Shown here piece after piece: positions 2,845-19,872 of a stretch of DNA of 49,460 nucleotides (its first letter is position 1; every line of letters starts with the position of its first letter). The notes beneath the pieces were generated by a model. It saw only the letters and a list, made by a program, of their open reading frames with translations. It ran no database searches and had not been told where the DNA came from. The stretch lies in assembly GCA_018824115.1 (NCBI GenBank), contig JAHJGY010000022.1, forward strand, positions 1 through 49,460. Direction: 5' to 3'. This DNA is from Patescibacteria group bacterium (GTDB taxonomy: Bacteria > Patescibacteriota > 4484-211). A program made the translations under genes and the position numbers.

Positions 2845-3855
2845 ATGGTGGACTCACTTTTTTATCGACTACTTAATATTGTTAGTGGAGTACTTGTGTT
2901 TTTAACGCTCGTCTCCCCTCCCCTGGTTTATGGTCAAGGGGTTCCGGTACTTAGCCTTGAGTTCCCCGAGGGATATAGTTCTGGGCCTTTTTCAGCTGGG
3001 GACCAGGTGGTTGTCGATCTTAAGTTTGACCCGGCGGGTTTAGAGATTCTCAATGCCGATGTTTTTATTCAGATTGATGATGGTGGCCTTCTAGAGCAAA
3101 ATTTGGTTTTGGATTCTGTGGAGCTTGTTGATTCGGAGCTAACGGTAGCACCTGGGTTGGTAGAGATAGTCAGTAATTCACGCAGCACAGACCAGATTGC
3201 TCTAATGGTGATTAAGGTTGTTGGTAGCGGTGCCGGAGCGATAGTGGAACCGATAACCCAAGAGGTTGTTATTGTTAGGCTCACATTTACGGTTGCTGAT
3301 GAAGTTAATATTACGGTAGCAGGGCTAAGATTTCTTGAAGGAACGAGTTTAATATTTACCTATCCTGTCGATGTGGAACCTGCTTTAAATAATTTGACAC
3401 TTACCATAATTCCTAGTGTTCCTACGCCCACATCTATGCCACCAACACCTATTCCTACGGAGATCCCATTTATTCCCGGGGATGGATCCCCTTTAGTGTT
3501 TTTTTCATTTGGATCATTAGCGACAGCAGTCTGTGAATCGCAGGTTTACCCCGAATGCGAGCTGCCTTGTACTACAGTGCCCGTTTTTAAGCGGTGTTTA
3601 AATTTGAACCAGTTTCTGAATCTAGCCATTTCTTGGAGTGCATTATTGGCGGTTTTGGTTTCTCTTGTTCGGTTAGCGGTTGGGACTTTCGGTTATATTA
3701 GTTCAACGGGTGATGCCAAAAAAATGGAGGAAGCTAGGATGACCATGATTTATGCTGTATTAGGCCTTATGATTATAGCTGTTGTTTGGCTATTTATAGT
3801 TATCGGACAGCAACTTGCTCCCGCTTCCTGGCAAATTTGGTTCGGGGGAGGATGA
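2845..3855 (+). CDS. cohesin-like module fused via a Pro/Thr linker to a Cys-rich, two-TM VirB2/TrbC-type pilin-like anchor
   Basis: 336-aa ORF with an N-terminal signal (VLVFLTLVSPPLVYGQG) and a beta-rich module that aligns by eye with the scaffoldin cohesins. A PT linker (SVPTPTSMPPTPIPTEIP) leads to a C-terminal Cys cluster plus two TM helices. Confidence 0.75.
   Translation: MVDSLFYRLLNIVSGVLVFLTLVSPPLVYGQGVPVLSLEFPEGYSSGPFSAGDQVVVDLKFDPAGLEILNADVFIQIDDGGLLEQNLVLDSVELVDSELTVAPGLVEIVSNSRSTDQIALMVIKVVGSGAGAIVEPITQEVVIVRLTFTVADEVNITVAGLRFLEGTSLIFTYPVDVEPALNNLTLTIIPSVPTPTSMPPTPIPTEIPFIPGDGSPLVFFSFGSLATAVCESQVYPECELPCTTVPVFKRCLNLNQFLNLAISWSALLAVLVSLVRLAVGTFGYISSTGDAKKMEEARMTMIYAVLGLMIIAVVWLFIVIGQQLAPASWQIWFGGG
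2941..3411 (+). other. cohesin-like domain (aa ~33-189 of the 2845..3855 product)
   Basis: GDQVVVDLKFDPAGLEILNADVFIQID parallels DDEMVVDINIIDTANLYGFQFDLAYD of scaffoldin cohesin 1. EVVIVRLTFTVADEVNITVAGLRF parallels GTLVGVRFRTLAAGTSVIDIQGLKL. Similarity is distant and judged by eye only. Confidence 0.45.
3532..3810 (+). other. VirB2/TrbC (T4SS pilin)-like Cys-rich double-TM anchor (aa ~230-322)
   Basis: CESQVYPECELPCTTVPVFKRC is followed by TM1 (AISWSALLAVLVSLVRLAVGTFGY), the loop ISSTGDAKKMEEARMT and TM2 (MIYAVLGLMIIAVVWLFIVIG). This matches my recollection of the small T4SS-pilin-like proteins common in CPR genomes. Confidence 0.45.
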
Positions 3856-5726: not shown

Positions 5727-5772
5727 ACTTGTCGGGGCTCAGCTTTGTTCAACTCGGTGTATACTAGAGAAT

Positions 5773-5892
5773 ATGCTTATGTTCAAGAAAAAGACAGTTT
5801 CCTGTTTGTTTTTAATCGCAATTATCATACTCGTTTTTAACTCGGCGCAGGTAAGTGTTAAAGGGCAAGACGACTGTACGGTTATTGTTGAT
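5773..5892 (+). repeat. signal-peptide cassette, copy 1 of 2 (pairs with 11719..11838)
   Basis: 120 nt encoding MLMFKKKTVSCLFLIAIIILVFNSAQVSVKGQDDCTVIVD. By eye it differs at about 6 positions from 11719..11838, after which the two genes are unrelated. Confidence 0.8.
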
Positions 5893-7455
5893 AGTTCTGG
5901 CGGGGGAGATTACTTGTCTATACAGGCAGGTTTGGATGCGAGTGAGCCGGGTGACACTATTTGCGTAAGAGGTTCAACTGATGCAGGAAATCCCCGAGTT
6001 TACAATGGCTATCTAAGATTAAATCAAAGTCACTCTGGGACAGTAGGAAATATTAAAACACTTAAAGCCGACGGATCCGTTTCTATCCAGAAAGGAGTCA
6101 GTGATAGCAGATGCCACGCTTTTGTGATTAACACAAGTATTAGTTATTTTACGATTGACGGCTTCGAAATCACTAATTTTGATTGCTTTGCTTTTCAGTT
6201 CGATAATGACGAGCAGTCCATAGATAATCCCTCGCAATACATTACCCTAAGGGATCTAAAAATTCACGATTTAGGGGCAAACGAGCCCGAGGGGTCTTTT
6301 ACAGGGACTCTTCTCAATTGCCAGCATGTGTTAATTGAAAACGTCGAGTTATACAGAAACGCTTCTGGTATTAACATAGGCGGGAATAGTTTTGATGTGG
6401 TAATAAGAAACAGTTCTAGCCACGATATGAGGCACCAATTGGATGGAGATGGATTTAATGCCAGTAATTGGGGTGAAGATGAAGTCGGCACAGATTATCA
6501 TCCCCACAATATCACCATTGAGGACACTTCAGTTTACAACAATGGCGAGGACGGTTTTGACTTTAAGGCAGATGATGTTACCTACCGTCGTTGTCGGAGT
6601 TACAATAATAGGGCTAGGGGCGTTGCGGTTAAGGGACTAAGACAAAAGATTGTAAACTCTCTGATTCATGGTAATGAGAAAAGTGTTAGTATTAGTGGTT
6701 GGAGAGATAGCAGTGTGGCCATTATTAACTCAACGCTTATTAGTGATTATGCAACGTTGTCGTATAGTGCCTATCCGTTTGTAATGGAGGCAGTGGTTAT
6801 AAATAGTATATTTATATCTCCAGACCGGACCGTGCAAATCCTTGAAGGACATAAGCTTTTCGGGGACAACAACATTTATTATAATAGTTCAAACGATGGC
6901 ACGGTGGTGGCTTATTATAGAGAATGGAACAACGGGGGTATTGGTAATGTTATAGAAACGTTTTACATGAATGATGTGAACTCTGGGCATTGGTCGTCAC
7001 AATTAGATTACTACGATGTGGGTGATAATACTGATTCAAATTCGCAGGGCATAAATCCCGCGTTTATTGATTTAGAAGGGTATAACTTGCAATTGCGTAG
7101 CGACTCAACAGCAATTGATGCTGGCGTACCAGATTACAGTTTTGCTGGGACTAGTTATCTTCCAGCATCCATTATAGAAATACCAACTATAGATATTGAT
7201 GGTAATCCGCGCGATTCTGATCCAGACATTGGTGCTTTTGAGTATATAGATGAAGCTGTCCCATCGCCCGGTCCCCTTCCCTCAGTTGAAGGAGATCTCA
7301 ATAGCGACGGAGTAGTGAACATCTTCGACCTCGTTATTATCGGCAATTGTTTTGGGCAGGAAGCAATAGGAACCTGCGCCCGTGCAGACGCCAACGGAAA
7401 CGGAGTGGTGGATATTTTTGATCTGGTAATTGTGGGTAGTCATTTTGGGCAGTAA
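5773..7455 (+). CDS. secreted right-handed beta-helix protein (pectate-lyase-fold) with C-terminal dockerin
   Basis: Start placed at ATG 5773 (MLMFKKKTVSCLFLIAIIILVF..., a signal peptide). The track start at 5593 would read through the preceding dockerin in another frame. Beta-helix motifs SIQAGLDASEPGDTICVRG, IRNSSSHDM and NITIEDTSVYNNGEDGFDFK. C-terminal dockerin. Confidence 0.85.
   Translation: MLMFKKKTVSCLFLIAIIILVFNSAQVSVKGQDDCTVIVDSSGGGDYLSIQAGLDASEPGDTICVRGSTDAGNPRVYNGYLRLNQSHSGTVGNIKTLKADGSVSIQKGVSDSRCHAFVINTSISYFTIDGFEITNFDCFAFQFDNDEQSIDNPSQYITLRDLKIHDLGANEPEGSFTGTLLNCQHVLIENVELYRNASGINIGGNSFDVVIRNSSSHDMRHQLDGDGFNASNWGEDEVGTDYHPHNITIEDTSVYNNGEDGFDFKADDVTYRRCRSYNNRARGVAVKGLRQKIVNSLIHGNEKSVSISGWRDSSVAIINSTLISDYATLSYSAYPFVMEAVVINSIFISPDRTVQILEGHKLFGDNNIYYNSSNDGTVVAYYREWNNGGIGNVIETFYMNDVNSGHWSSQLDYYDVGDNTDSNSQGINPAFIDLEGYNLQLRSDSTAIDAGVPDYSFAGTSYLPASIIEIPTIDIDGNPRDSDPDIGAFEYIDEAVPSPGPLPSVEGDLNSDGVVNIFDLVIIGNCFGQEAIGTCARADANGNGVVDIFDLVIVGSHFGQ
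7291..7452 (+). repeat. dockerin-module coding repeat, copy 2 of 5
   Basis: GDLNSDGVVNIFDLVIIGNCFGQEAIGTCARADANGNGVVDIFDLVIVGSHFGQ. Confidence 0.85.
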
Positions 7456-7479
7456 GAAAAGATTCTCATTTTAGGCAGC

Positions 7480-7508
7480 TTGACGAATCTCGATTTTCTT
7501 GATAGCTT
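7480..7508 (+). promoter_or_regulatory. putative promoter (TTGACG-N17-TAGCTT)
   Basis: TTGACG at 7480-7485, TAGCTT at 7503-7508, and ATG 11 nt downstream at 7520. The -10 match is weak. Confidence 0.3.
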
Positions 7509-7519
7509 GAGTGTGTACT

Positions 7520-9526
7520 ATGAAATTTCTCCGAGCTGTAACTGTCTTTTTTAATGTTTTTATTCTTCTGGTAAACCCTATCCTCATTTTAGCGGCGCCG
7601 CTCACAATTCACCCTAATAACCCTCGTTATTTTACCAATGACACCGGCCAGCCGATTTATATGACTGGTTCTCAGACTTGGTATAACATTCATCAAAATA
7701 CGACTATAGAAACCAATACAACAACATCTGAATATTTCGAAGAATATTTGGATTGGATGCAGTCTCATGGACATAATTTCACCCGCTTATGGACAGGGCT
7801 TAGCTACTTGGATAATCCACCCTTCCCCTGGAATCGCTCAGGGCCGGGTACTGCCAATGATGGCAACCCTCAGTTTGACATGCGCGCCTTTAACCAAAGT
7901 TATTTTGACGCCGTCAAGGAAAGGGTTTCTCAAATTCAATCTCGGGGAATGTACTGTTCGATTATGTTCTTTGGGTCGCACAATGGGTTGAAAAGTGATT
8001 TTATCAACACGGCTTGGCACCCCAATAATAATGTAAACGATGAATTAGATATTTTTGATAATGATGGCTACTTTTTTTTTACCACTGATCCAGAAGCCTT
8101 GGAAACCCAGCGGGCATTGGTTCGGAAATTTATAGACGAGTTGAATGATTTTGACAATCTTATTTGGGAGATTATGAATGAGCCTGGCGAGCAATCTGTG
8201 GAATGGCAGGAGGGAATGATTGAATATGTGAGATCGTACGAATTCAGCAAACCGAAACAGCATCTAATTGGGATGACCGGAGGCTGGAATCTTGGCGCCC
8301 AGATGCTCGAAAGTTCTGCCGAGTGGATTTCGCCAGATTGGGACTGGTACGTAGAAGGTCCAGGAGACTACCGTGAAGGCGGACCTGCCGATTTTTCCGA
8401 AAAGGTAATTATCAACGACACTGATCACCTTTGGGGTTGGTCAGAGCCCGAAAATGCTGAAGAGATGCGAAAATGGGTCTGGAAAACCTTCGCTCGAGGC
8501 AACAATTTGATTTTTATGGATTCGTATGATCATTATAGAGAAGATGTCGAGAACTACGGTGAGATTAACCATGATTGGGATTTGCTCAGGGATACAATGG
8601 GATATACAGTGGATTACTCTCAGAAATTTACTGACATGGCCGCTCTGATGCCTTCGGACAGTTCAACGGAATGTTCAACAACCTATTGTTTACAAAATCC
8701 AGGAATGGAGTATTTTGTGTATCAACCAAGTTCGGGAGAGTTCACAGTAAATCTCGAGCCTGGGAGTTACAATTACGAGTGGTTTAACCCTCAAGTGGGT
8801 AGTGTCTCGCAGACGGGATCGCGAAGTGTGAGTGGTGGAAATACCAGTTTTACGCCACCTTTTAGCGGTGATGCTGTACTCTATTTACAGGTTGTTGTTC
8901 TCACACCCTCTCCTGCATTAAGCCCTACTCCTCAGCCAACACCTGCGGGTGAAAAATTGACGGGGACAGTAATAGGGGTTTGTGAACCTTATGAGGGGAA
9001 TTCTGATACTAGCTACGGTGCAGCCGTGGACGGGAAAACGGAAACGTTTTCGGACTGCGTGGGTGATGAGATGTACGTGGGTTATGATTTTGGTGCAGGA
9101 AGCAATAAAATTATCAATAATATTCGTTATTGGCCTCGAGATGATTGGAATCAAAGAATGGTTGGGAGAACCTTCGAAGGATCACAGGATAATATTTCTT
9201 GGGTGACACTCTTCACAGTACAAACTGCTCCACCATATGACCAGTTTACAACTATTGCCATAGATGACAATACTCCTTTTCGGTTCGTTCGTTACAATGG
9301 TGCAGGTGGATATTTGAATGTCTCTGAAATTGAGTTCTATGGTATAGATGCTTCTTTAGACGGAGACTTAAATGGCAGCGGCACCGTTGACATCTTTGAC
9401 CTCGTTATTATCGGCAGTTGTTTTGGGCAGGAAGCAACTGGTGACTGCGCCCGCGCAGACGCCAACGGGGATGGAGAAGTGGATATTTTTGATTTGGTAA
9501 TTGTGGGTGGGAATTTTGGAGATTAG
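7520..9526 (+). CDS. secreted clan GH-A-like TIM-barrel glycosidase + discoidin/CBM32-like module + dockerin
   Basis: Start at ATG 7520 (MKFLRAVTVFFNVFILLV..., a signal). Motifs: IHPNNPRYFTNDTGQPIYMTGSQTW, acid/base-type WEIMNEPGE, and beta-sandwich FTVNLEPGSYNYEWFNP. A PT linker leads to an F5/8-type-C-like module (IRYWPRDDWNQRMVGRTFEGSQDNISW...FRFVRY) and the dockerin. Confidence 0.85.
   Translation: MKFLRAVTVFFNVFILLVNPILILAAPLTIHPNNPRYFTNDTGQPIYMTGSQTWYNIHQNTTIETNTTTSEYFEEYLDWMQSHGHNFTRLWTGLSYLDNPPFPWNRSGPGTANDGNPQFDMRAFNQSYFDAVKERVSQIQSRGMYCSIMFFGSHNGLKSDFINTAWHPNNNVNDELDIFDNDGYFFFTTDPEALETQRALVRKFIDELNDFDNLIWEIMNEPGEQSVEWQEGMIEYVRSYEFSKPKQHLIGMTGGWNLGAQMLESSAEWISPDWDWYVEGPGDYREGGPADFSEKVIINDTDHLWGWSEPENAEEMRKWVWKTFARGNNLIFMDSYDHYREDVENYGEINHDWDLLRDTMGYTVDYSQKFTDMAALMPSDSSTECSTTYCLQNPGMEYFVYQPSSGEFTVNLEPGSYNYEWFNPQVGSVSQTGSRSVSGGNTSFTPPFSGDAVLYLQVVVLTPSPALSPTPQPTPAGEKLTGTVIGVCEPYEGNSDTSYGAAVDGKTETFSDCVGDEMYVGYDFGAGSNKIINNIRYWPRDDWNQRMVGRTFEGSQDNISWVTLFTVQTAPPYDQFTTIAIDDNTPFRFVRYNGAGGYLNVSEIEFYGIDASLDGDLNGSGTVDIFDLVIIGSCFGQEATGDCARADANGDGEVDIFDLVIVGGNFGD
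9362..9523 (+). repeat. dockerin-module coding repeat, copy 3 of 5
   Basis: GDLNGSGTVDIFDLVIIGSCFGQEATGDCARADANGDGEVDIFDLVIVGGNFGD. Confidence 0.85.
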
Positions 9527-9621
9527 GTGCGGAGAAGGCCCTATCGAAAGCACAAAGCCTTGCTGGTTTGGCACGGATGGAAAGTTAACGGTAATCTACT
9601 GGTAATAGTGTTGCTCATCTT

Positions 9622-11700
9622 ATGCAGAAAAATATTAGTTATAAAATATCAATCCTTTTTTTAAGTATTGGAGTTTATCTAGGACAATTGTTAATTATGC
9701 CTCGAATAACTGTGGAAGCCGCTACCGACCTAAGAGTTGGTAGCAATGGCCGCTGGCTGGTAAAAAGGGACTCGAGTGAGCCCTTTTTTCTTATGACCGA
9801 TTCTGCCTGGCGGCTCCATGCGCTTTCCTCTGGCGAACAAGATACCTATTTTCAAAATAGACAAAGTAAAAAATTTAATGGCACCTATGTTGGATTAACA
9901 ACTTATTGGAATGATGTCGATGCAAGTAATGCAAATGGCGATCTTCCCTTTAATGATGATACTGATTGTCTTGATTGGAATTATGAATACTTTGAATTCT
10001 TTTCGGATATGGTAGAGAAAGCGGGCTCGTATGGCATTTACATTATTATTGAAATTGGAGAAGCGACTGACAGTCGAAGACCATTTTTTGTGGGTACTGG
10101 TAATATTTCAAAGGCAAAAGACTGGGGAAAAATGGTTGGAGAGTATTTTGGAAATCACGAAAATGCAATTTTTGCTCTAGGACAAGATAGGGATGCGGAT
10201 GAAGATGGTTTAGAGTTACACAGAGCAGTAGCAGAAGGTTTAGTAGAGGGTGTAACTGGTCGAGATATAAATTGGGACGAGTCGTCTTCTGCTTGGAACG
10301 AGGTTCTCTTAACATATCACCCTGCAGGGGGAATACTGAATTCGTCTGATTGGTTTCATAATGATCCATGGCTTGATTTTAATAGTATTGAGTTATATGG
10401 TGGGAGCAGGCAAGATGATATTTACCCAGAGATACAAAATGACTATAACAAATCTCCTACAAAACCTACGTGGGTGATTGAGGCAGCCTACGAGGATCGA
10501 GAATCCAGTGTCCCGGAAGATGATCCAAAGGTTGATGAGTATTGGATACGTTTTAGCGCATATCAGGGAGTTTTTGCCGGAGCATTTGGAACCAGCTATG
10601 GACATCATTATAACTACTATTTTCCTGATGATTGGAGAGACAAGCTCGACACGCCTGGGGCTTTGGACATGCCACATTTGTTCAATCTGATTAATAATAG
10701 TAATAGAAATTTTTCACTTCTTCAGCCTGACCAGAATGTTATTACCTCTTTGGTTGGGAGTGGATTTGAACGACGCGTGGCCGTAAGGGCCAGTAACGGA
10801 GCGTTTATATATGTGTATCTTCCCAGGGGAGGATCGGTTACGGTTGATATGACAAAAATATCAACCGGAGATGTTACTGCACAGTGGTACAATCCGCGCA
10901 ATGGTTCCTACTCAAGCATTGGAATGTATGCCAACAGTGGCACACGCTCGTTTTCTGCTGCAAGCAGTGGAAAGGGAAATGATTATGTTCTTGTGCTTAC
11001 TGGCGGCGAAACTTCAACACCTACTCCAACATCTACTCCCGCCTCAACACCAACGCCATTTCCAATTCCCACCCCATATGCAATTCCTGGAAGAGTTGAG
11101 GTAGAAAATTATAATGTGGGTGGGGAAGGACTTGCGTATCACGATACAACATCTGGCAATGAAGGTGGAGAATACAGGGATGAAGATGTGGATATTCAAA
11201 ATTGTGAGGATGAAGGTAGGGGTTATAACATTGGATGGATCAGGGAAGGCGAATGGCTTAAATATGATGTCGAAATTAGCGAGTCAGGGAATTATGAAGT
11301 GAGATTAAGAGTAGCTGGGGATACAGAAGTAAGCGGTTCTGTACATTTTGAGCTTGACGGAGAGAGGGTTACGGAGGATATTATAATTCCCAACACAGGT
11401 GGCTGGCAATCCTGGACGACAGTGAGTATAGATACAACACGAGAGCTTGTTTTAGGAAACCACACTCTAACCATTTATATGGGCGGAAATAGCTTTAATA
11501 TTAATTGGGTGGAGTTAGTTGGTTCGATAACCCCTGGCGACCTTAACAACGATGGCGTGGTTGACATCTTTGACCTGGTCATCATAGGCAGTTGTTTTGG
11601 GCAGGAAGCAGTCGGAGACTGCGCTCGCGCAGACGCCAACGGAAACGGAGTGGTGGATGTTTTTGATCTAGTGATAGTGGGAGGTAATTTTGGAGCGTAG
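9622..11700 (+). CDS. secreted DUF4038/GH140-like TIM-barrel glycosidase + CBM6-like module + dockerin
   Basis: N-terminal signal/anchor. EPFFLMTDSAWRLH and WVIEAAYE are typical of DUF4038-type barrels, and VTAQWYNPRNGSY of the accompanying beta-sandwich. After a PT linker comes a CBM6-like module (IPGRVEVENYNVGGEGLAYHD...TGGWQSWTTVS...FNINWVEL), then the dockerin. Confidence 0.85.
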   Translation: MQKNISYKISILFLSIGVYLGQLLIMPRITVEAATDLRVGSNGRWLVKRDSSEPFFLMTDSAWRLHALSSGEQDTYFQNRQSKKFNGTYVGLTTYWNDVDASNANGDLPFNDDTDCLDWNYEYFEFFSDMVEKAGSYGIYIIIEIGEATDSRRPFFVGTGNISKAKDWGKMVGEYFGNHENAIFALGQDRDADEDGLELHRAVAEGLVEGVTGRDINWDESSSAWNEVLLTYHPAGGILNSSDWFHNDPWLDFNSIELYGGSRQDDIYPEIQNDYNKSPTKPTWVIEAAYEDRESSVPEDDPKVDEYWIRFSAYQGVFAGAFGTSYGHHYNYYFPDDWRDKLDTPGALDMPHLFNLINNSNRNFSLLQPDQNVITSLVGSGFERRVAVRASNGAFIYVYLPRGGSVTVDMTKISTGDVTAQWYNPRNGSYSSIGMYANSGTRSFSAASSGKGNDYVLVLTGGETSTPTPTSTPASTPTPFPIPTPYAIPGRVEVENYNVGGEGLAYHDTTSGNEGGEYRDEDVDIQNCEDEGRGYNIGWIREGEWLKYDVEISESGNYEVRLRVAGDTEVSGSVHFELDGERVTEDIIIPNTGGWQSWTTVSIDTTRELVLGNHTLTIYMGGNSFNINWVELVGSITPGDLNNDGVVDIFDLVIIGSCFGQEAVGDCARADANGNGVVDVFDLVIVGGNFGA
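11536..11697 (+). repeat. dockerin-module coding repeat, copy 4 of 5
   Basis: GDLNNDGVVDIFDLVIIGSCFGQEAVGDCARADANGNGVVDVFDLVIVGGNFGA. Confidence 0.85.
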
Positions 11701-11718
11701 CTAGATTTGACTAAAAAT

Positions 11719-11838
11719 ATGCTTATGTTCAAGAAAAAGATAGTTTCCTGTTTGTTTTTAATCGCAATTATCATACTCGCTTTTGACTCTGCGCAGGTAA
11801 GTGTTAAAGGGCAAGATGACTATACGGTTATTGTTGAT
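11719..11838 (+). repeat. signal-peptide cassette, copy 2 of 2 (pairs with 5773..5892)
   Basis: Encodes MLMFKKKIVSCLFLIAIIILAFDSAQVSVKGQDDYTVIVD. Near-identical DNA to 5773..5892. Confidence 0.8.
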
Positions 11839-13848
11839 GCTAATGAGCCTGTCTCAAGAAACCAATCTTTGAAAGGGCAGGTTTTGCAGGCAAGTGATGC
11901 CAAGACTGGGTATATTCACATGGATCCTTCAGGGAAGGGATTTGTTTACGAAGGAGGGGCGAAATTTATTCCTGTTGGTCACAATGCGCACACTGTATAC
12001 AAAAGGGAATGGCAAGACGATCCAGTTACTGGCAGAGAATATATTTCTCGGTTAGGGGCACGCATTGAAAGAGATGGGTGTACGGATTGGTGTGGGGATG
12101 GGTGTTTACCCGAAACTGAAGGCTTAACCTATGACGAATGGTTTTCACAGTTGGAGGAATCGGGTGTCAACAGCCTGCGTTTGCACTTTAGTTCCAATGT
12201 TTGGCGGCCTGGTGTGCACCCTTTGCCAGTTGGTAAATACAACGTTATGGATGAGCAGGTTTGCGCCATGCTGGATGGCGCTAGAAGTAACGCCGATGGG
12301 TTCCAGGATAAACAGATTGACGGGGAAGACTTAATGATAAACTATCCGAGTTGCAGATGGCCAGATTTTTCCAATGAAAACTGCGGCCCCCTATACGGAC
12401 CCAAGCTACGCAAGAGTCTAATTACTCGAATGCTTGCATCTGCAGAAAGCCACAGCGTAAAGCTAAAAATTGTTTTTTTCGGAACAGATGGCTGGAGTGG
12501 TGACCCCTATGAAGATAATGGTAATTTTAATTGGAACAGCTGGGAAATCAATCCCTTTAACAGCGCTAATTGCCGACACGACGATCCCGGAAGATGCGGG
12601 CCTATTAGCAACAGGTTCGACTTTTGGACCAACGGAACTTGGAACTCGCCACTCTTTTCAGAAGAATCTGCCATAAATTATGCCAAAAGATATGTGGCGT
12701 TTATAATGCACGTTTGGGGAGACAGCACCGCTATTTGGGACTGGGAATTGTGGAACGAAATTAATTACGCCTCCATCTCCTACGGCCACGAGCAGGAAAT
12801 GGCCAATTGGGTAAACAACATGGCTGCTTATGTCAAATCAAATGATCTTCATCACCGCCCTGTTTCCATAAGTTCCTACAATCTTAGCACTAGCACGGAC
12901 AACCAGCAAAAAATGCAAGTATTTGCCTCACCAAACATTGATTACGTCCAATGGCACTACTACCCACGGGACGAAGATGCCAGTGTCCAATACGCCCTTC
13001 AGGCCACAAGAGATATGGAAGATATTTACAACAAGCCGGCTTTTATCGGAGAATTCTGGCCATGGACTGCCCAGATGGGTCCAATTGAACAAGATGTAAC
13101 TGGCATCTTTATTGAAGACAGCCAAAAGGACGATCCTCCCCACGAGGAATATCCATACCGTCCGAGTTTAGCCAGACTTTGGCTACAACTGATTTCTTCT
13201 GGGACTAGTGTTTCTCATCGTTGGCATGAACCAGGATTAACGGGAATTCGCTATTGGGAAGTTCATCGGCTTTATCAAGGCGTGGCCAAATTTATCAACG
13301 TTGTTTCTTGGGATAGTTGGAACTTAGCTAATTCAATTCCCTGGGAAGATTTTATTACTGGGGATATCGATTTTGTTGCTGGGCGGGGTGATGGAGATCA
13401 GATTTTTGCCATGATTCATGGTATAGGTGATTCTGTAAATGTAGAAATCAATAATCTTGATGATGGGACTTATGTTGTGAGATCTTTTGATTTTATTTCT
13501 GGAGAGGTGGCGGAAGTCTACAATGGTCAACAGACATTTGGGAGCACTTTGAGTCTCTCGTTTAGTTTATCTAACTCAACATTAGATGTCGGAAATGACG
13601 GGTATGACAGGAGGAGAGTAGGAATTTTTCTTATAGAAAAAGAGGACATGGGTGTTCCCACTCCCCTCCCCTCGGTTGAAGGAGACCTCAATAATGATGG
13701 TATCGTTGACATTTTCGATCTCGTTATTATCGGCAGTTGTTTTGGGCAGGAAGCAGTCGGAGACTGCGCTCGCGCGGACGCCAACGGAAACGGAGTGGTG
13801 GATGTTTTTGATTTGGTAATTGTGGGTAGTCATTTTGGTATTTGGTAA
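11719..13848 (+). CDS. secreted clan GH-A (GH5-like) glycosidase with C-terminal dockerin
   Basis: Start at ATG 11719, with the same signal peptide as the 5773 gene. Motifs: WELWNEINY (acid/base-type NE) and AFIGEFWPW (nucleophile-type E). C-terminal dockerin. Confidence 0.85.
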   Translation: MLMFKKKIVSCLFLIAIIILAFDSAQVSVKGQDDYTVIVDANEPVSRNQSLKGQVLQASDAKTGYIHMDPSGKGFVYEGGAKFIPVGHNAHTVYKREWQDDPVTGREYISRLGARIERDGCTDWCGDGCLPETEGLTYDEWFSQLEESGVNSLRLHFSSNVWRPGVHPLPVGKYNVMDEQVCAMLDGARSNADGFQDKQIDGEDLMINYPSCRWPDFSNENCGPLYGPKLRKSLITRMLASAESHSVKLKIVFFGTDGWSGDPYEDNGNFNWNSWEINPFNSANCRHDDPGRCGPISNRFDFWTNGTWNSPLFSEESAINYAKRYVAFIMHVWGDSTAIWDWELWNEINYASISYGHEQEMANWVNNMAAYVKSNDLHHRPVSISSYNLSTSTDNQQKMQVFASPNIDYVQWHYYPRDEDASVQYALQATRDMEDIYNKPAFIGEFWPWTAQMGPIEQDVTGIFIEDSQKDDPPHEEYPYRPSLARLWLQLISSGTSVSHRWHEPGLTGIRYWEVHRLYQGVAKFINVVSWDSWNLANSIPWEDFITGDIDFVAGRGDGDQIFAMIHGIGDSVNVEINNLDDGTYVVRSFDFISGEVAEVYNGQQTFGSTLSLSFSLSNSTLDVGNDGYDRRRVGIFLIEKEDMGVPTPLPSVEGDLNNDGIVDIFDLVIIGSCFGQEAVGDCARADANGNGVVDVFDLVIVGSHFGIW
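13681..13845 (+). repeat. dockerin-module coding repeat, copy 5 of 5
   Basis: GDLNNDGIVDIFDLVIIGSCFGQEAVGDCARADANGNGVVDVFDLVIVGSHFGIW. Confidence 0.85.
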
Positions 13849-13909
13849 TATTTAAATATAGGCATTAGGTGCGCAATTGGTATACGGACTTGACAAGGCC
13901 AGTCCGTGT

Positions 13910-13939
13910 TTGACATACTCTAACTGTAGCTTCTATATC
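13910..13939 (+). promoter_or_regulatory. putative promoter (TTGACA-N18-TATATC)
   Basis: TTGACA at 13910-13915 (a second TTGACA lies at 13890-13895), TATATC at 13934-13939, and ATG at 13943. Sequence match only. Confidence 0.3.
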
Positions 13940-13942
13940 GAG

Positions 13943-14209
13943 ATGGAGAATTTTGATCATAAAGAAAATTTTATGGAAGCGGGCACAAATTTCCCCAAAG
14001 TGTCCCCGAGTAGCAGGAAATTCCAGTTTTTATTAGCAGTTATTCTTTTGTTGTTAGTCTTTTTTTTCCCGATAAATGGTAGATCGCTGTTAGATAGATT
14101 AGTAGACTGGAAACAAGAAAGAGTGGTAAATTTGGTTCCAAACCCATCTTTTGAGGAGGGCCTTGATAACCAGCCAGCAGGATGGACAACCAAGAGTCGA
14201 AGTTTGTGA
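13943..14209 (+). CDS. small single-TM protein ending in an orphan NPSFE...GW jelly-roll strand (paralog A); possibly a gene relic
   Basis: The first ATG of ORF 13877..14209 gives 88 aa. TM helix LLAVILLLLVFFFPI, then ...VVNLVPNPSFEEGLDNQPAGWTTKSRSL and a stop. Paralogous to the next ORF. Confidence 0.4.
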   Translation: MENFDHKENFMEAGTNFPKVSPSSRKFQFLLAVILLLLVFFFPINGRSLLDRLVDWKQERVVNLVPNPSFEEGLDNQPAGWTTKSRSL

Positions 14210-14246
14210 GGGTACACAGGCCTTTGATGTTGGTTCAGTATTAAAT

Positions 14247-14537
14247 ATGGAAGGAATTATTCCAGAGGAACAACTGAAACAAGAGAGTCCATTAGAAAAT
14301 GAGGTTCATGATGATCTTGCCAAGTTGCTTTTTAGGAAGAGGTATATTTACATTATTGTTGCTATGGCAGTTCTTTTCTTGTTCTTCTTCCCTATCGGTG
14401 AAAAGTCACTGATAGAGCGATTAGCAGAATTGGGTAAGCAGAAGGCAGAGAATCTAGTTCCGAATCCGAGCTTTGAAAAAGGTTCGGGGGATGAGCCGGC
14501 TGGCTGGACGACGAAAAGTAAATATTCTTCCGAGTAA
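14247..14537 (+). CDS. small single-TM protein ending in an orphan NPSFE...GW jelly-roll strand (paralog B); possibly a gene relic
   Basis: An internal ATG of ORF 14151..14537 (MEGIIPEEQ...) gives 96 aa. TM helix IIVAMAVLFLFFFPI, then ...AENLVPNPSFEKGSGDEPAGWTTKSKYSSE. The TAA stop ends 2 nt before the scaffoldin ATG. Confidence 0.4.
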   Translation: MEGIIPEEQLKQESPLENEVHDDLAKLLFRKRYIYIIVAMAVLFLFFFPIGEKSLIERLAELGKQKAENLVPNPSFEKGSGDEPAGWTTKSKYSSE

Positions 14538-14539
14538 TC

Positions 14540-17359
14540 ATGCAACGTAAAATAGCTATAACCATTAGTGTTTTTGTTCTAGCGCTACTTCTCCCTGTTA
14601 TGGGTGCGGCGCAAGTTGTAGGTTGTGAATATGAGTGGGCTAGTGATTATTTCCACACTGGAGATCGCTCTCTTAAAATTCAAAGTGATGATCCGGGCAC
14701 TGCCTGTAGTTGGGTGAGCGAGGAGGGGGTTGAGGTGACAGCGGGTGAGGAGTATGAGATATCGGGCTGGATTAGAACAGAAGATGTAAATGGTGCTGCG
14801 GTAGTTGAGGTTGTGTTCTACGGTGGTACTGGCACTGAGGTTTTCAGGGAATCGACGCCGGAGTTAGATGGGACGACAAGTAATCCGGACGAGAATGATT
14901 TTGTCGAGAGAACAGCTAGCGCGATTGCGCCTGCGAGCGCAGTAAGCGCGGTATTGGAGTTAACGCTAATAGGAACAGGAATAGTTTGGTTCGATGATGT
15001 TTCTATGAGCCAGGTTTCGGGTGAAGCGAACACAGTTAGGGTGGCGCCGGAGATGCAAACAGTGGGTATTGATGATGAAATGGTCGTAGATATTAATATA
15101 ATAGATACGGCGAATTTGTATGGATTTCAATTTGATCTTGCCTATGATTCGTCCATTCTAGAGTACATTTCCTTGGAAAGAGGAACATTTATTGGTGATT
15201 CGTATAGTACTTACTGGGTTGCTTTAAATACTGGTACCCCGGGGTTAATTGGTAGTATTGCTGTGACGCGAACAACTCCTGGCGAAACAGTATCTGGCTC
15301 GGGAACACTGGTGGGCGTGAGGTTCAGAACTCTGGCAGCGGGAACCTCAGTAATTGATATTCAGGGTCTTAAATTATCAGATGATGATGCAAACGAGATC
15401 TTGTCAACAGCGCAGGATGGCACTGTTATTGTAGCTGGAGAGATAACTCCTCCATCACAGCCCACGCCGACCCCGATACCGACATCTATACCAACCCCAA
15501 CCCCAACTATACCGATACCTACGCCTACGGCGGTGCCTACAGTTACACCCACGGTAGCACCAACAGTGGTGCCCACATTGGCGCCAACGCCAACGCCAAC
15601 GCCTACCATACCGATACCTACGCCTACAACGGCGCCTGCAGTTACACCCACGGTAGCACCAACGGTGACGCCCACATTGGCACCAATACCGACGTTAACA
15701 CCTACACCCCCACCCGAGGATTCCTGTCTTTATGAGTGGGCTACTGATTATTATCGGTCACCGGATCACTCATTAAAAGTCTATAGTGATGACCCGGCTT
15801 CTACTTGCAGTTGGGTTTCCGAGGATCCAATATCAGTTAACGCTGGTAAAGAATACGAATTGGTCGGGTGGATTCGAACAGAGAATGCGGCCGACGGTGT
15901 GTACTTGGAAATAGTGTTTTACGATAGTAATGGTGACGAACTTATGAGAAAGGCGACCTTAGAGGTGATTGGTACGACGGGAGTTTTTGTTGAGAGGAAG
16001 GTTAGTGCGGTAGCACCTTCTGGAAGCATGAGTGTAGCAATAGAACTAACTCTGACGGGAATTGGGACAGCGTGGTTTGACGATATCTCTTTTTCCGAGG
16101 TGTCTATTGAACCGAATACAGTTAAAGTATCACCCGATTCACAAACCGTTGCAGTTGGTGATGCAGTGTCTGTGGATATTAACGTAGTTGAAGTTTCTGA
16201 CCTATATGGATTCCAATTTGATATAACCTATGGATCGACGATATTGGAATTTGCTTCGTTAGAACGTGGGCTTTTTATTGGAGATGCGGACAGTACTTAT
16301 TGGGTTAGTGAAGATACCAGTAGTGCTGGTGTAATTAGGAATATTGCCGCGACACGGACTATTCCCGGAGTAGCTGTTTCGGGGTCAGGTACATTAATTA
16401 CTCTCACATTTAATGCTGTTGCTAGTGGAAGTTCAAGTATTAGAATCGAGAATTTGAAGCTGGCTGGCAGTAATGCCGAAGAAATACCTTCTACGGCTGT
16501 GAGTGGAGTTGTTGTTGTTTCTACAGGAGAGAACGAGTTGCCATTAGTAGATTTAAAGGCAGACAGTTTAGACGGGTCGATTACTATTCCCATTAATAAC
16601 ACTGTTGCCCTTTCCTGGACTTCTGAAAATGCTACCAGTTGTGTGGGTTCGGGAGATTGGTCAGGAGTGAAGCCGCTGGTTGGGCTGGAAGAAACTGGTA
16701 ATTTGACATCTCAGAAGTTTTACACACTAACCTGCACCGGTTCAGGAGGAACAGCTTCGGATAGCGTGACTGTTAACATAGGAGCTACGCCGACACTTTA
16801 TACCAGTTTGCAAGTGGCTGTTGATTCAATGAATTGGCAGAATAGTTTATCGGGCAGTGCTCCCCTGAATGGCGTTGATTTGAAGGCAACGGTGGAGCAG
16901 TGCACGATAAACTATACCTTTTGGTGCCATTGTGCCGATTCCGGTTTGAGCGTTTCAAAGACCATCGAAAAGTGCGGAATTCCCGATTATAAGGTAGATG
17001 GGACTCATCAGAATCCGATGGTGGCAGATGATTTATGTGACTATTCTTTTTCTGGGATCTATACTGCGAAGGTGATTGTGGAAAAATACCTTTCCGAACC
17101 AGTAGAAGATAGAGCTACAATTCTTGTTGCTCCCGAAACGAGCCCGCCACCAGTTTCCCCGATTCCGACACCTGTACCGAGTGATAAGTATGATGTTAAC
17201 GGTGATGGGGTTGTGAATATAGATGACCTTAAGGCGGTAATCAATTGTTGGGGAAAATCTTACTGCCTACCGCTGGAAACGGATATCAACGGAGATGGAA
17301 TCGTCAACGGATGGGATGTAATTGAGTTAACTCGTTATCTAATTGCCCAGAAATTCTAA
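14540..17359 (+). CDS. scaffoldin-like protein: signal, [CBM-like jelly roll + cohesin] x2 joined by a PT linker, Ig-like and PKD-like modules, divergent C-terminal dockerin
   Basis: 939-aa ORF with signal peptide MQRKIAITISVFVLALLLPVMGAAQ. The two-unit internal duplication covers aa 29-299 and aa 396-661. Cohesin hallmarks are LYGFQFDLAYDSSILEYISLERGTFIGD and LYGFQFDITYGSTILEFASLERGLFIGD. Ig-like module VALSWTSENATSCVGSGDWSG...YTLTCTGSGGTASDSVTV. C-terminal DVNGDGVVNIDD...DINGDGIVNGWD. Confidence 0.85.
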   Translation: MQRKIAITISVFVLALLLPVMGAAQVVGCEYEWASDYFHTGDRSLKIQSDDPGTACSWVSEEGVEVTAGEEYEISGWIRTEDVNGAAVVEVVFYGGTGTEVFRESTPELDGTTSNPDENDFVERTASAIAPASAVSAVLELTLIGTGIVWFDDVSMSQVSGEANTVRVAPEMQTVGIDDEMVVDINIIDTANLYGFQFDLAYDSSILEYISLERGTFIGDSYSTYWVALNTGTPGLIGSIAVTRTTPGETVSGSGTLVGVRFRTLAAGTSVIDIQGLKLSDDDANEILSTAQDGTVIVAGEITPPSQPTPTPIPTSIPTPTPTIPIPTPTAVPTVTPTVAPTVVPTLAPTPTPTPTIPIPTPTTAPAVTPTVAPTVTPTLAPIPTLTPTPPPEDSCLYEWATDYYRSPDHSLKVYSDDPASTCSWVSEDPISVNAGKEYELVGWIRTENAADGVYLEIVFYDSNGDELMRKATLEVIGTTGVFVERKVSAVAPSGSMSVAIELTLTGIGTAWFDDISFSEVSIEPNTVKVSPDSQTVAVGDAVSVDINVVEVSDLYGFQFDITYGSTILEFASLERGLFIGDADSTYWVSEDTSSAGVIRNIAATRTIPGVAVSGSGTLITLTFNAVASGSSSIRIENLKLAGSNAEEIPSTAVSGVVVVSTGENELPLVDLKADSLDGSITIPINNTVALSWTSENATSCVGSGDWSGVKPLVGLEETGNLTSQKFYTLTCTGSGGTASDSVTVNIGATPTLYTSLQVAVDSMNWQNSLSGSAPLNGVDLKATVEQCTINYTFWCHCADSGLSVSKTIEKCGIPDYKVDGTHQNPMVADDLCDYSFSGIYTAKVIVEKYLSEPVEDRATILVAPETSPPPVSPIPTPVPSDKYDVNGDGVVNIDDLKAVINCWGKSYCLPLETDINGDGIVNGWDVIELTRYLIAQKF
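15029..15436 (+). other. cohesin domain 1 (aa ~164-299)
   Basis: NTVRVAPEMQTVGIDDEMVVDINIIDTANLYGFQFDLAYDSSILEYISLERGTFIGD...GSGTLVGVRFRTLAAGTSVIDIQGLKLSD. The pattern matches cohesin modules as I recall them. Confidence 0.65.
15506..15703 (+). repeat. 99-nt tandem duplication inside the Pro/Thr linker (2 copies)
   Basis: TIPIPTPTAVPTVTPTVAPTVVPTLAPTPTPTP is followed directly by TIPIPTPTTAPAVTPTVAPTVTPTLAPIPTLTP. The DNA copies are near-identical. Confidence 0.85.
16112..16522 (+). other. cohesin domain 2 (aa ~525-661)
   Basis: NTVKVSPDSQTVAVGDAVSVDINVVEVSDLYGFQFDITYGSTILEFASLERGLFIGD...GSGTLITLTFNAVASGSSSIRIENLKLAG. Confidence 0.65.
17186..17344 (+). other. divergent dockerin at the scaffoldin C-terminus (aa ~883-935)
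   Basis: YDVNGDGVVNIDDLKAVINCWGKSYCLPLETDINGDGIVNGWDVIELTRYLI has two DxNGDGxVNxxD loops. Its helices and linker are unrelated to the five enzyme dockerins. Confidence 0.7.
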
Positions 17360-17418: not shown

Positions 17419-17448
17419 TTGACAAAATTCGGAAGTAAGGGGTAGGAT
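17419..17448 (+). promoter_or_regulatory. putative promoter (TTGACA-N18-TAGGAT) upstream of pilM
   Basis: TTGACA at 17419-17424 and TAGGAT at 17443-17448, in the 180-nt gap after the scaffoldin gene. Confidence 0.3.
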
Positions 17449-17538
17449 AGAGGTAGTCGTGGGATTTAAAGAACCCGCCGGATCGACGGGTTAATTCGGT
17501 CGGTGGTCCGATTTTACATTGGACTGGACTTCAATTTA

Positions 17539-18588
17539 ATGCAACAGTTTTTTGGTTTAGATATAGGATCACGTAATATTAAAGTAGTTGAGTTAAACCG
17601 TGCCCGAGATGGCAGGCCTGAGTTAGTGGCATTTGGCTCGACAGAGACGCCTTCCGGGGCGATGCAGTCAGATTCGGAGATGGATCAGCAGAAGGTGGCT
17701 AAGGCGATTAAGGAGCTGATGAAAGAAAGTAAAATCAAGAGTCAGAAAGTGATTACAGCTTTTCCAGAATCCCGGGTATTTACCAGAGTGATAGAATTTC
17801 CACCATTAAGAGGAGAAGAATTGTACAGGGCTTTAGAGTGGGAATCAGATCGGTTTATTCCTTTGCCTAAAGATAAAGTAAAAGTAAGTTGGATGGTACT
17901 TGATGAAGGGCAACTCCCTGAGGGCGAAGAAGCTGGTCGGAAGATGGAGATATTACTGGTTGCTGCTCCTCTAGATCTGGTGAATAGATATTTAGGTATC
18001 CTTGAAATGGCAGGTGTTGAACCAGTTGCCTTTGAGTCAGAGATTATAGGCATGGTTCGTTCTTTAATTACTGGATCTGACGAGAGTGCCGTAGCATTGA
18101 TTATTTCCTTAGGTGCTTCAGCGACAGATTTGTGTATAGTAGATCGGGGAACAATCCGTTTTACGCGAAGTATTGGTACCAGTGGAGATGATTTAGCTAA
18201 GGCTGTTTCTAGGGATTTGGGATTTGAGGTTGCCCAGGCAGAGGAATACAAGCGAGCTTATGGCTTGATGGAGGATAAATTGGGAGGGAAAATCCTGGCA
18301 GTTGTTAAGCCAGTATTCGATGTAATTGTTAATGAGATTGAGAAAGCGATTATTTCTTATCAAACAAAGGTGCCGATGCGACCCGTTAAAAGAGTTGTGC
18401 TTACGGGAGGTACAGCCAGATTACCTGGAGTAGTTGTGTATTTGGCCGAGAGTCTTGGCATAGAAGTTCAGATTGGAGATCCGTGGGTTAATATTGTGAT
18501 TCCTCCACGGTTTGAAGAAGAAGTTCGTCGCTTGGAAAACCAGACTCAGTTTGCAGTTGCAGGTGGGCTGGCATTAAAGCAAGATTAA
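17539..18588 (+). CDS. pilM: type IV pilus assembly protein PilM (actin-like ATPase fold)
   Basis: FFGLDIGSRNIKVVEL N-terminal phosphate-1-like motif, with LGASATDLCIV and VVLTGGTARLPG. The ORF opens at GTG 17503; ATG 17539 (MQQFFGLDIGS) fits PilM N-termini better. Confidence 0.85.
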   Translation: MQQFFGLDIGSRNIKVVELNRARDGRPELVAFGSTETPSGAMQSDSEMDQQKVAKAIKELMKESKIKSQKVITAFPESRVFTRVIEFPPLRGEELYRALEWESDRFIPLPKDKVKVSWMVLDEGQLPEGEEAGRKMEILLVAAPLDLVNRYLGILEMAGVEPVAFESEIIGMVRSLITGSDESAVALIISLGASATDLCIVDRGTIRFTRSIGTSGDDLAKAVSRDLGFEVAQAEEYKRAYGLMEDKLGGKILAVVKPVFDVIVNEIEKAIISYQTKVPMRPVKRVVLTGGTARLPGVVVYLAESLGIEVQIGDPWVNIVIPPRFEEEVRRLENQTQFAVAGGLALKQD

Positions 18589-18619
18589 CGAGTTGTAAAT
18601 ACCTTCATTATTTTTATCT

Positions 18620-19180
18620 ATGCTATCTATGCAAGGAAAAGGGGTTAACCTATTACCTCAAGAAATTCAAGAACAAGAAGAAAAAGGATTAACATTCCGG
18701 AAGGTTAGTGTGCTTTGTGTTTTGGAGTTAGTTTTATTAGCAGTGATAGTACTTGGTCTTTATCGGTATCGGGAACAAATTGGGTCTCAATGGCAGATAC
18801 TTGACCAGGAGGTATTAACTCAACGGAGTGTAATAAATACTGAAGAGAATCGGAGATTGGAAGGGAAATTTACTGTAGTTAAGAAGAAGATAGGTGCTTT
18901 GGGAGAATACTTTGAACAACGATGGCATTACGCTACTTTCCTTGATGGTCTTACGAAAGCGCTCCCGGCAGGCTTGCAGATGATTTCTCTGAGGCAGACA
19001 GAGACTCCATCCGTTTTTGAGTTTTCAGGTCAAGCTGATAATGTAGGTCAGGTGAACACTTTTATTGATGACTTAGTCCAATGGGATGAGGTTATGTCGG
19101 TGTCGGTAACATTGCTGGATTATCAGATAGATAAGGGACGGTTAATTTTTAATTTAGCTATTACCAGGGAAAATATATGA
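18620..19180 (+). CDS. pilN: PilN-like pilus assembly protein
   Basis: N-terminal VNLLPQEI motif, one TM helix (VLCVLELVLLAVIVLGL) and a coiled C-terminal part. It lies directly after pilM. Confidence 0.7.
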   Translation: MLSMQGKGVNLLPQEIQEQEEKGLTFRKVSVLCVLELVLLAVIVLGLYRYREQIGSQWQILDQEVLTQRSVINTEENRRLEGKFTVVKKKIGALGEYFEQRWHYATFLDGLTKALPAGLQMISLRQTETPSVFEFSGQADNVGQVNTFIDDLVQWDEVMSVSVTLLDYQIDKGRLIFNLAITRENI

Positions 19181-19872
19181 GACAATCACCATTGTTCTTA
19201 ATACTGATTTGCGTAATTACTACTATTTTGGTTGTTGTATTAACGATCTATCCCTGGATTGGAGAGATTGGCTGGATGAAGAGGGAAATTGCAACTAGGG
19301 AAGCGCTACTAAACGATAAATTGTTACCGAAAGTAAATTTATTGCAATCCTTAACCGAGGTAGAGTTGGACTCTAGTATCGCCGCCTTAGAGGAGGCTCT
19401 CCCTTCTTTCCCTCAGGAATGGTCGGTATTTGCCTCGTTAGAAGCGTTGGCTGCAGAATCGAAAGTGGAGCTAGGTTTGTTAAATATAGGCAGTCTCGGA
19501 TTTGATGAGGCTACGTTATTGGAGGGTGGTGGGCGCCTAATGACAGTGGATGTACCAATTACTAGTGTCGGAGATCTTTCTCAAACAGTTGCTTTCCTCA
19601 AAAACATTGAGAGGGCAAAGAGGGTGTTGTCTTTAGCCCAGTTATCTTTGGGGAGTGATGGTGAAGAGATTCGTCTGTCAGGAATAGCAATAGTGCCGTT
19701 TCTCCCCGTCCCATCGAAGTTGGGACCTGTTGATGAACCTCTTGAAGAACTCAAAGTCGGAGACCAAGATATATTAGCTCAAGTCGCCCGTCTTAATTTA
19801 TATGGAATTTCCTTTCAATCCCCCGATTTCACAGGCGGGGATGTTGATTATGGGAAATCTGACCCTTTCTAA
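19177..19872 (+). CDS. pilO: PilO-like pilus assembly protein
   Basis: ATGA start/stop overlap with pilN. One N-terminal TM helix (LFLILICVITTILVVVLTIY), then coiled-coil and a ferredoxin-like C-terminal half. Assigned mainly from position and topology. Confidence 0.55.
   Translation: MRQSPLFLILICVITTILVVVLTIYPWIGEIGWMKREIATREALLNDKLLPKVNLLQSLTEVELDSSIAALEEALPSFPQEWSVFASLEALAAESKVELGLLNIGSLGFDEATLLEGGGRLMTVDVPITSVGDLSQTVAFLKNIERAKRVLSLAQLSLGSDGEEIRLSGIAIVPFLPVPSKLGPVDEPLEELKVGDQDILAQVARLNLYGISFQSPDFTGGDVDYGKSDPF

Follow-up and report, generated by a model that had tools for sequence, protein, structure and literature searches.

A carbohydrate-binding-type jelly roll divided between small membrane proteins and a scaffoldin in a Patescibacteria genome: a candidate membrane tether

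Introduction

Chaperone-usher pilus assembly uses donor-strand complementation, and domains can be split by another domain inserted within one chain, as in split PH domains. The scaffoldins of cellulosomes are anchored through SLH domains, sortase signals or anchoring scaffoldins. Cells of the Candidate Phyla Radiation (CPR)/Patescibacteria live attached to hosts or substrates, and to our knowledge their surface display of enzymes and adhesins is largely unknown. Here, we describe a locus in a stretch of 49,460 nucleotides (the window hereafter; contig JAHJGY010000022.1 of assembly GCA_018824115.1) from a Patescibacteria group bacterium, an ultra-small groundwater bacterium. Two tandem small open reading frames (ORFs), ORF1 and ORF2, encode predicted membrane proteins ending in the first two strands of a jelly roll of the type found in carbohydrate-binding modules (CBMs), and the adjacent scaffoldin carries two such modules from which these strands are missing. 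The arrangement may hold the scaffoldin, and with it a set of dockerin-bearing enzymes, at the membrane surface.

The modules share their predicted fold with the families CBM4_9, CBM22 and CBM16 (Pfam PF02018), whose opening motif, N-P-x-F-E followed by G-W, is the one carried by the small ORFs; here, in contrast, the first two strands reside on a separate membrane protein. As in cellulosome scaffoldins, the cohesins lie on a non-catalytic protein with a CBM-like module, and dockerin-bearing, glycoside-hydrolase-like enzymes are encoded alongside, but the scaffoldin shows no SLH match, sorting signal or further transmembrane segment, and its proposed tether is a split CBM-like domain. Likeness to split PH domains is seen in protein P0009 of a related genome (G001), in which the hairpin and the rest of the jelly roll are parted by DUF5060 and an apiosidase-like enzyme, whereas the two halves in the window are on separate gene products, each apparently targeted to the outside independently.

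In a single-membrane bacterium, ElrE is described as a membrane-anchored donor-strand chaperone for the WxL pilin ElrD (10.64898/2026.10.17.759780). With chaperone-usher pili and with ElrE/ElrD, the present locus shares a strand-deficient beta-sandwich, whose completion by the strands of another polypeptide is a prediction here. It differs in the fold concerned (a jelly-roll CBM rather than an immunoglobulin-like or WxL domain), in the strands donated (two N-terminal strands rather than one C-terminal strand) and in the donor, which is a minimal transmembrane segment and hairpin with about 45 external residues and not a folded chaperone. No sequence relationship to the pilus donor-strand systems was found, and the genome gave no sign of an usher, a polymerising subunit or strand exchange, nor of further donors. 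Donor-strand complementation and split domains are thus known principles. In the open-access literature searched, no account was found of a membrane tether made from a split CBM or of CPR3 cohesin-dockerin systems, and within that literature the CBM-like jelly roll, the N-terminal two-strand donation, the minimal transmembrane-hairpin donor and the setting, a cohesin-dockerin cluster of a CPR3 genome some 1 Mb in size, appear to be new.

Results

Architecture of the locus

The pair of small ORFs is located on the + strand between a gene for a dockerin-bearing product (11707..13848) and a 939-residue gene (14540..17359), and comprises the following features:

13943..14209, + strand: ORF1 (ATG at 13943, stop at 14209), 88 residues; from its sequence and homologs, a probable N-in/C-out membrane protein with an orphan beta1-beta2 hairpin

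14021..14074, + strand: hydrophobic helix of ORF1, residues 27-44, FQFLLAVILLLLVFFFPI, with R25 and K26 before it

14129..14197, + strand: hairpin of ORF1, residues 63-85, NLVPNPSFEEGLDNQPAGWTTKS, from the alignment of nine family members

14247..14537, + strand: ORF2 (ATG at 14247, TAA at 14535-14537), 96 residues, a paralog of ORF1 and protein P0001 of the protein collection

14343..14396, + strand: hydrophobic helix of ORF2, residues 33-50, YIYIIVAMAVLFLFFFPI, with R30, K31 and R32 before it

14451..14519, + strand: hairpin of ORF2, residues 69-91, NLVPNPSFEKGSGDEPAGWTTKS, from the co-fold interface; maps to residues 50-63 of the relative P0100

The positions, the lengths of 88 and 96 residues and the distance of 2 nucleotides to the scaffoldin start agree with an earlier sequence-only reading of the window. 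The TAA of ORF2 is followed by two bases (tc) and then by the scaffoldin ATG at 14540, a gap that suggests coupled translation. BLASTP aligns the two small products with 28/62 identical residues (45%, E 1e-23), which bears out their description as tandem paralogs, and they are the sole matches of their kind in the whole 1.0-Mb genome (1,008,991 bases in 86 contigs, 95.8% complete). Both products begin with a variable tail and basic residues; a hydrophobic helix of about 18 residues comes next, and behind it the conserved segment P-I-x-G-[KR]-S-L-x-x-R-L. The 44-46 residues beyond the helix end in NLVPNPSFE(E/K)G..PAGWTTKS plus 3-5 residues. This layout of a tail, one transmembrane helix and about 45 external residues, as first proposed, can be read directly from the sequence, and neither product matches a Pfam family.

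By inspection, all nine family members have a single helix of about 18-20 residues, with basic residues on its N-terminal side and no cleavage motif after it. The positive-inside rule, the lack of a cleavage motif and an N-terminal tail of a length untypical of signal peptides together point to an N-in/C-out topology, in which the small ORFs would encode single-pass signal-anchor proteins.

The scaffoldin consists, in order, of a signal peptide, truncated module 1, cohesin 1, a Pro/Thr linker, truncated module 2, cohesin 2, a region without a family and a dockerin:

14540..17359, + strand: scaffoldin, 939 residues, from Pfam matches and sequence

14540..14611, + strand: predicted signal peptide, residues 1-24, as read from MQRK, a hydrophobic core and GAA; probably cleaved

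14621..15019, + strand: truncated jelly-roll module 1, residues 28-160, starting G-C-E-Y-E-W (profile match 14624-15019, E 1.1e-48)

15083..15433, + strand: cohesin 1 (PF00963, E 1.0e-9, above the cut-off)

15722..16102, + strand: truncated jelly-roll module 2, residues 395-521, starting S-C-L-Y-E-W (profile match, E 3.8e-44)

16121..16519, + strand: cohesin 2 (PF00963, E 5.1e-13)

17189..17341, + strand: C-terminal dockerin, residues 884-934 (Dockerin_1, E 4.6e-9)

The Pfam Cohesin family matches the whole protein with E 6.2e-19 over two stretches, both PF00963 matches on this non-catalytic protein being above the cut-off, and Dockerin_1 matches the products of the five upstream genes beginning at 3870, 5593, 7511, 9622 and 11707. 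Two cohesins together with dockerin-bearing proteins from five upstream genes make 'scaffoldin' a fair name. One module of about 130 residues precedes each cohesin, and it starts with C-x-Y-E-W directly after the signal peptide in one case and after the long Pro/Thr linker in the other. The opening motif is absent upstream of both modules, its place being taken by the signal peptide or the linker.

Three other explanations of features of the scaffoldin were rejected. A lipobox-like V-V-G-C (residues 26-29, 14615..14626) could suggest a lipoprotein; the counterpart in G002, a genome of another genus, reads Q-A-A-C, and module 2, which is internal, opens with this Cys as well, which assigns the residue to the module. 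The Cys pair C29/C56 is not an adaptation to the truncation, as the complete relatives P0019 (in the 25-row module alignment) and P0039 (inspected as a sequence) have it too. A fusion of ORF2 with the scaffoldin by frameshift or read-through would insert the hydrophobic signal segment of the scaffoldin after strand 2, ahead of strand 3, and would return the module to the cytoplasm, and the two-gene layout with its 2-nucleotide spacing is kept in G002. Residues 664-882 (16529..17185), between cohesin 2 and the dockerin, match no Pfam family; a stretch that appears similar by eye ('VDLKA..DG.ITI...YTLTCTG') occurs in the related scaffoldin P0163.

Predicted fold of the modules

An AlphaFold2 model of module 1 alone, built on a 25-row alignment, has a predicted local distance difference test score (pLDDT) of 95.7. 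Foldseek returned 289 PDB matches to this model at E up to 0.001, led by CBM16, CBM22, CBM4 and a hyaluronan-binding module; the best is 2zey_A (E 4.2e-8, TMq 0.72), and 4xup, 1gui and 1dyo are also among them. The profile of the modules matches the solved CBM22 of Xyn10B (2w5f) with E 8e-7. In addition, P0100, which is 32% identical to module 1, passes Pfam CBM_4_9 (PF02018; E 1.2e-7, 32.6 bits against a cut-off of 25.9). The label 'CBM4_9-type' used at the outset therefore stands on the predicted fold, the CBM22 profile match and the passing relative, but not on a family match of the modules themselves, as no Pfam CBM family was matched by the whole scaffoldin at E up to 1 and none, CBM_4_9 included, by the isolated modules at E up to 10. 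On these models and profiles, the modules are CBM4_9/CBM22-like jelly rolls, a fold of the carbohydrate-binding type.

Register of the split

Searching module 1 against 1.84 billion representative proteins yielded 624 relatives at E up to 0.001, and the best 150 of the 624 were examined for an opening motif. A relaxed form of the motif ([ND]-small-x-hydrophobic-E within 45 residues upstream) is present in cis in 206/257 domain copies as compared with 6/257 control segments taken from inside the module, four copies having been left out for lack of upstream sequence; the strict form, N[PSGA]xFE, is found in 112/261 copies. Many of the remaining 51 copies show obvious variants of the motif by eye. 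The clear exceptions, which start with C-x-[YF]-x-[WY] after a linker or a signal peptide, are the two modules of the window, P0012 and P0085. The last of these, a metagenomic protein of 391 residues that is 30% identical to module 1, has a module beginning C-Q-Y-Q right after its signal peptide, followed by a PKD domain and a T4SS_pilin-like anchor.

The position of the cut can be located from proteins that contain both halves. A scan for the hairpin motif, with one genome per species, gave 24 confirmed loci. In all 23 of those outside CPR3, the frame continues for at least 149 residues past the motif, and in 8/23 a match to module 1 lies directly downstream of the hairpin match. In one of the loci scanned (L016), the hairpin match (911-933) and the module match (935-1058) are adjacent and non-overlapping within a single chain. 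P0100, with its CBM_4_9 domain at residues 54-188, gives a similar register: residues 65-78 of ORF2 align with its residues 50-63, and residues 5-135 of module 1 with its residues 79-207. The scaffoldin modules lack beta1 (NLVPNPSFE) and beta2 (GWTTKS), and their body starts at strand 3. The register in relatives thus identifies the ORFs and the modules as the halves of a single domain, which is divided in the loop that links strands 2 and 3. The proposal that the modules are without their opening strand holds in that the strand is missing, as its presence in cis in most relatives makes clear, but two strands are gone rather than one.

A complete module with its opening strand in cis, ILNPSFESGGWKW, is encoded within the window by 236..2242, where the sequence-only reading had placed it, and a module match follows the strand. 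A conserved segment ('...GPKSTTYWL.S..PTTK...') precedes ILNPSFESGGWKW in this product, and counterparts occur in 4/4 genomes of the family.

Co-occurrence of the two halves

The class is represented by 13 genomes in the collection, in which the opening motif upstream of each module was judged by eye. Orphan hairpins occur in 3/13 genomes: two in that of the window (G000), two in G002 and one in G001. The module profile has 18 matches in 11/13 genomes, and the five truncated modules among them are confined to the genomes with orphan hairpins (two in G000, two in G002, one in G001). The other 13/18 matches have an opening motif upstream in frame, which is a variant in the case of the one match in G012. 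Hairpins and truncated modules thus stand at 2:2, 2:2 and 1:1, in keeping with the pairing of two orphan strands with two incomplete modules from which the idea of complementation started.

G001 has no gene of its own for the hairpin. P0009, a protein of 1506 residues, carries both the hairpin and the truncated module about 560 residues apart, in the order transmembrane segment, hairpin (residues 66-88), DUF5060, apiosidase-like domain, Pro/Thr linker and truncated module (starting C-E-F-T-W, residues ~650-785), followed by a beta-helix and a T4SS_pilin-like C-terminal membrane domain. One and the same domain is therefore interrupted by about 560 residues in G001 and divided between genes in G000 and G002.

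Conservation and selection

In G002, the order of a dockerin gene, two small transmembrane-hairpin ORFs, a 2-nucleotide gap and a scaffoldin with two C-x-[FY]-x-W modules is preserved. A collection of 5.8 billion proteins contains eight stand-alone members of the family, called at 84-110 residues, four of which come from other metagenomes. All eight stop within 10 residues of GWTT.S; P0005 ends in GWATK and may be cut short. The family alignment has nine rows, eight of them stand-alone proteins, and in all nine the hairpin residues N, L, P, N, F, E, G, P, G and W and the juxtamembrane P and R are invariant, while the N-terminal tails vary apart from a common 'ME..' start. The frames are intact in 9/9 members, from at least three genera plus metagenomes. 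The conservation that was to be looked for in related genomes is thus present, both in the tandem position with its 2-nucleotide spacing and in the homologs from metagenomes.

The small ORFs are under purifying selection. Among five CPR3 sequences, the proportion of nonsynonymous differences (pN) is 0.30-0.45, as compared with a saturated proportion of synonymous differences (pS) of 0.69-0.97. The ratio of the corresponding rates (dN/dS), the measure first suggested for these genes, is 0.17-0.37 in the 4/10 pairs where dS was computable; dS is saturated in 6/10 pairs, which makes pN against pS the usable measure. Contig pieces from runs X2, X3, X4 and X6 are identical to the window across the region, so that they provide no within-species variants; X2 may be the sample from which the window itself came.

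A metagenome scan with P0006 produced only two partial matches (L036 and L037), covering query residues 61-99, and did not recover the contig of P0006 itself. P0008 and P0012 both derive from an ENA contig of 3307 bases, which is no more than a hint that a hairpin ORF may adjoin a protein with one truncated module. Taken jointly, the results make it very probable that the small ORFs function as genes and that the split of the domain is genuine.

Predicted pairing of hairpin and module

The acceptor fold lacks strands that its relatives have, and a co-fold of the two halves places the hairpin where these strands would be. Module 1, with its 25-row alignment, was co-folded with residues 49-96 of ORF2, with the 9-row family alignment. 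The co-fold score is 0.65 (runs 0.67, 0.65 and 0.61) as compared with 0.01 for the best of three controls, and the interface is confident and reproducible. In a calibration, the same mark was reached by 58/80 solved complexes and by 2/110 mismatched pairs, a benchmark that holds only roughly here, where custom alignments were used. At least 87% of the contacts are common to the runs, and the pLDDT of the partner is at least 66.

The predicted interface involves hairpin residues 68-94 and module residues 4-9, 14-21, 27-40, 115-116 and 127-134. The strand CSWVS has GWTTKS running antiparallel to it, and the last module strand (WFDDVS) is flanked by NLVP. The N- and C-terminal strands of such jelly rolls adjoin each other. 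The modelled geometry is that expected if the hairpin replaces the missing strands, and it supports such a replacement. Taking all lines of evidence together, we consider it moderately probable that the hairpins bind the modules in trans and so complete the jelly rolls.

Genes and signals around the locus

A promoter-like site precedes the small ORFs:

13890..13919, + strand: sigma-70-like site, TTGACA, 18 nucleotides and CATACT, with TG before CATACT; 10/12 matches to the consensus, identified by consensus only

The consensus scan found 13 promoter-like sites in the region as compared with 6.5 expected. Located just upstream of ORF1, the site could possibly mark the start of a transcript that covers ORF1, ORF2 and the scaffoldin. 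A further promoter-like site (17419-17448) is located ahead of the type IV pilus assembly genes that directly follow the scaffoldin (17503..19872), which include PilM (E 2.3e-46), a weak PilN and a further ORF.

Five consecutive genes for dockerin proteins occupy 3870..13848; their products carry between them Beta_helix, apiosidase-like, GH5-like (cellulase-like), Collagen_bind_2, CBM_6/35 and F5/8 domains, and together they amount to a cellulosome-like set of enzymes, encoded in a genome of some 1 Mb. The ORFs 3870..5726 and 5593..7455 overlap by 134 nucleotides, and the TTG start of the second is probably placed too far upstream. The product of 2845..3855 (336 residues) consists of a signal peptide, a beta-rich domain of about 160 residues without a Pfam match, a Pro/Thr linker and a C-terminal membrane domain. 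This last domain has a weak match to T4SS_pilin (E 1.4e-4, below the cut-off) and resembles the C-terminal region of P0009 by eye. A Pfam T4SS_pilin domain also forms the C-terminus of P0012 and P0085.

Discussion

In this locus, a jelly roll is shared out between two polypeptides, with the cut in the loop that follows strand 2, and we propose the following way in which the halves could be reunited. ORF1 and ORF2 would insert into the membrane with their N-terminal tails in the cytoplasm and their C-termini outside, displaying strands 1 and 2 some 20 residues off the membrane. The scaffoldin would be exported by its own signal peptide, which would then be cleaved. Outside the cell, each hairpin would insert into one module body, strand 1 pairing with the last module strand, WFDDVS, and strand 2 with CSWVS. 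The completed sandwiches could then keep the scaffoldin at the membrane surface, along with the dockerin enzymes of the upstream genes. In this proposal, the hairpins would act as the anchoring devices of the complex.

No other recognised anchor was found on the scaffoldin, which has no further transmembrane segment and ends in a dockerin. The genome contains no SLH match and no Pfam cohesins beyond the scaffoldin's own; no sorting signal is visible at the scaffoldin C-terminus, and the genome has three sortase genes. Completion in trans with tethering, one of the two explanations offered by the sequence-only reading, fits these observations, and the binding that it needs is predicted by the co-fold. 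The full claim, that the split jelly roll is a non-covalent scaffoldin tether working through transmembrane-hairpin proteins and, in G001, also in cis across a 560-residue enzyme, is in our judgement about evenly balanced.

Several observations weigh against this proposal. The confident prediction of module 1 alone suggests that the module may be stable without a hairpin, although truncated domains receive confident predictions too, so that the score is no proof that module 1 is complete. In the co-fold, the two halves of a split fold tend to pass through the model's memory of intact CBM structures. Conservation at the predicted interface is 0.66 as compared with 0.59 elsewhere, and the corresponding values in complete modules are 0.49 and 0.39; as the excess is seen in complete modules as well, this comparison does not discriminate. 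The three genomes in which the halves co-occur are related members of one family and are not independent, which makes the co-occurrence suggestive rather than statistical.

The anchoring role meets objections of its own. P0009 possesses an N-terminal transmembrane segment and a C-terminal T4SS_pilin-like domain as anchors despite its truncated module, and P0012 combines a GDSL-like domain, a truncated module and a cohesin with a T4SS_pilin-like C-terminal anchor; the split must therefore have some reason besides anchoring. P0163 has none of these modules and, judged from its sequence alone, a hydrophobic tail resembling a membrane anchor. Moreover, the product of 2845..3855 could offer the dockerin of the scaffoldin another way to the membrane. 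Positioning, control of folding or regulated assembly may be purposes of the split no less than tethering.

The sequence-only reading had named three outcomes as telling against completion in trans: modules that fold as complete jelly rolls, small ORFs absent or disrupted in close relatives, and a co-fold without a confident interface. None of these has clearly occurred. The first comes nearest, for module 1 does fold confidently by itself; the mapping onto relatives shows that it nevertheless starts two strands late.

An unlikely explanation, which nonetheless accounts for part of the evidence, is that the truncated modules are autonomous products of a gene fission and that the small membrane proteins were kept for another job, such as binding a host or substrate ligand, sensing, or, as upstream cistrons, setting scaffoldin translation by coupling. 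The confident fold of the module alone and the separate anchors of some truncated-module proteins agree with it, as does the 2-nucleotide spacing with the coupling variant. However, the invariant residues of the orphans are those that define opening strands in cis, where they pack on the body of the jelly roll, and a free peptide of about 25 residues would have no obvious reason to keep them. The matched counts of hairpins and truncated modules also argue against autonomy, and the poor conservation of the cytoplasmic tails against a signalling role.

Equally built on an incomplete fold, but quite improbable here, is a transient, chaperone-like complementation, in which the tethered hairpin primes or stabilises the module around export and is later displaced by a strand of another protein. 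Its logic, an incomplete fold with a membrane-anchored donor, is that described for ElrE/ElrD (10.64898/2026.10.17.759780), and truncated modules in proteins already anchored would suit it. Against it, searches of the genome turned up neither a further orphan hairpin nor an N-terminal extension able to succeed the donor, and each scaffoldin has two modules for two donors; no polymerising subunit is in evidence. That the ORFs are the decayed and non-functional 5' remains of an ancestral scaffoldin with a membrane anchor, the other explanation first offered, is extremely improbable: the homology of the hairpins to the start of complete modules makes an origin by fission or duplication likely, and a fission origin stays plausible, but the intact frames in 9/9 members, a pN far below saturated pS and the conserved 'ME..' start and stop position rule out decay.

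If the proposed tether is real, a fold of the carbohydrate-binding type would be encoded in two pieces by separate genes and put together again outside the cell, and the pair would be a compact natural two-strand tag and catcher, usable in protein engineering. For scaffoldins, it would represent a new anchoring route beside SLH domains, sortase signals and anchoring scaffoldins. For the CPR, it would be a previously undescribed way to fix a cellulosome-like complex on the membrane.

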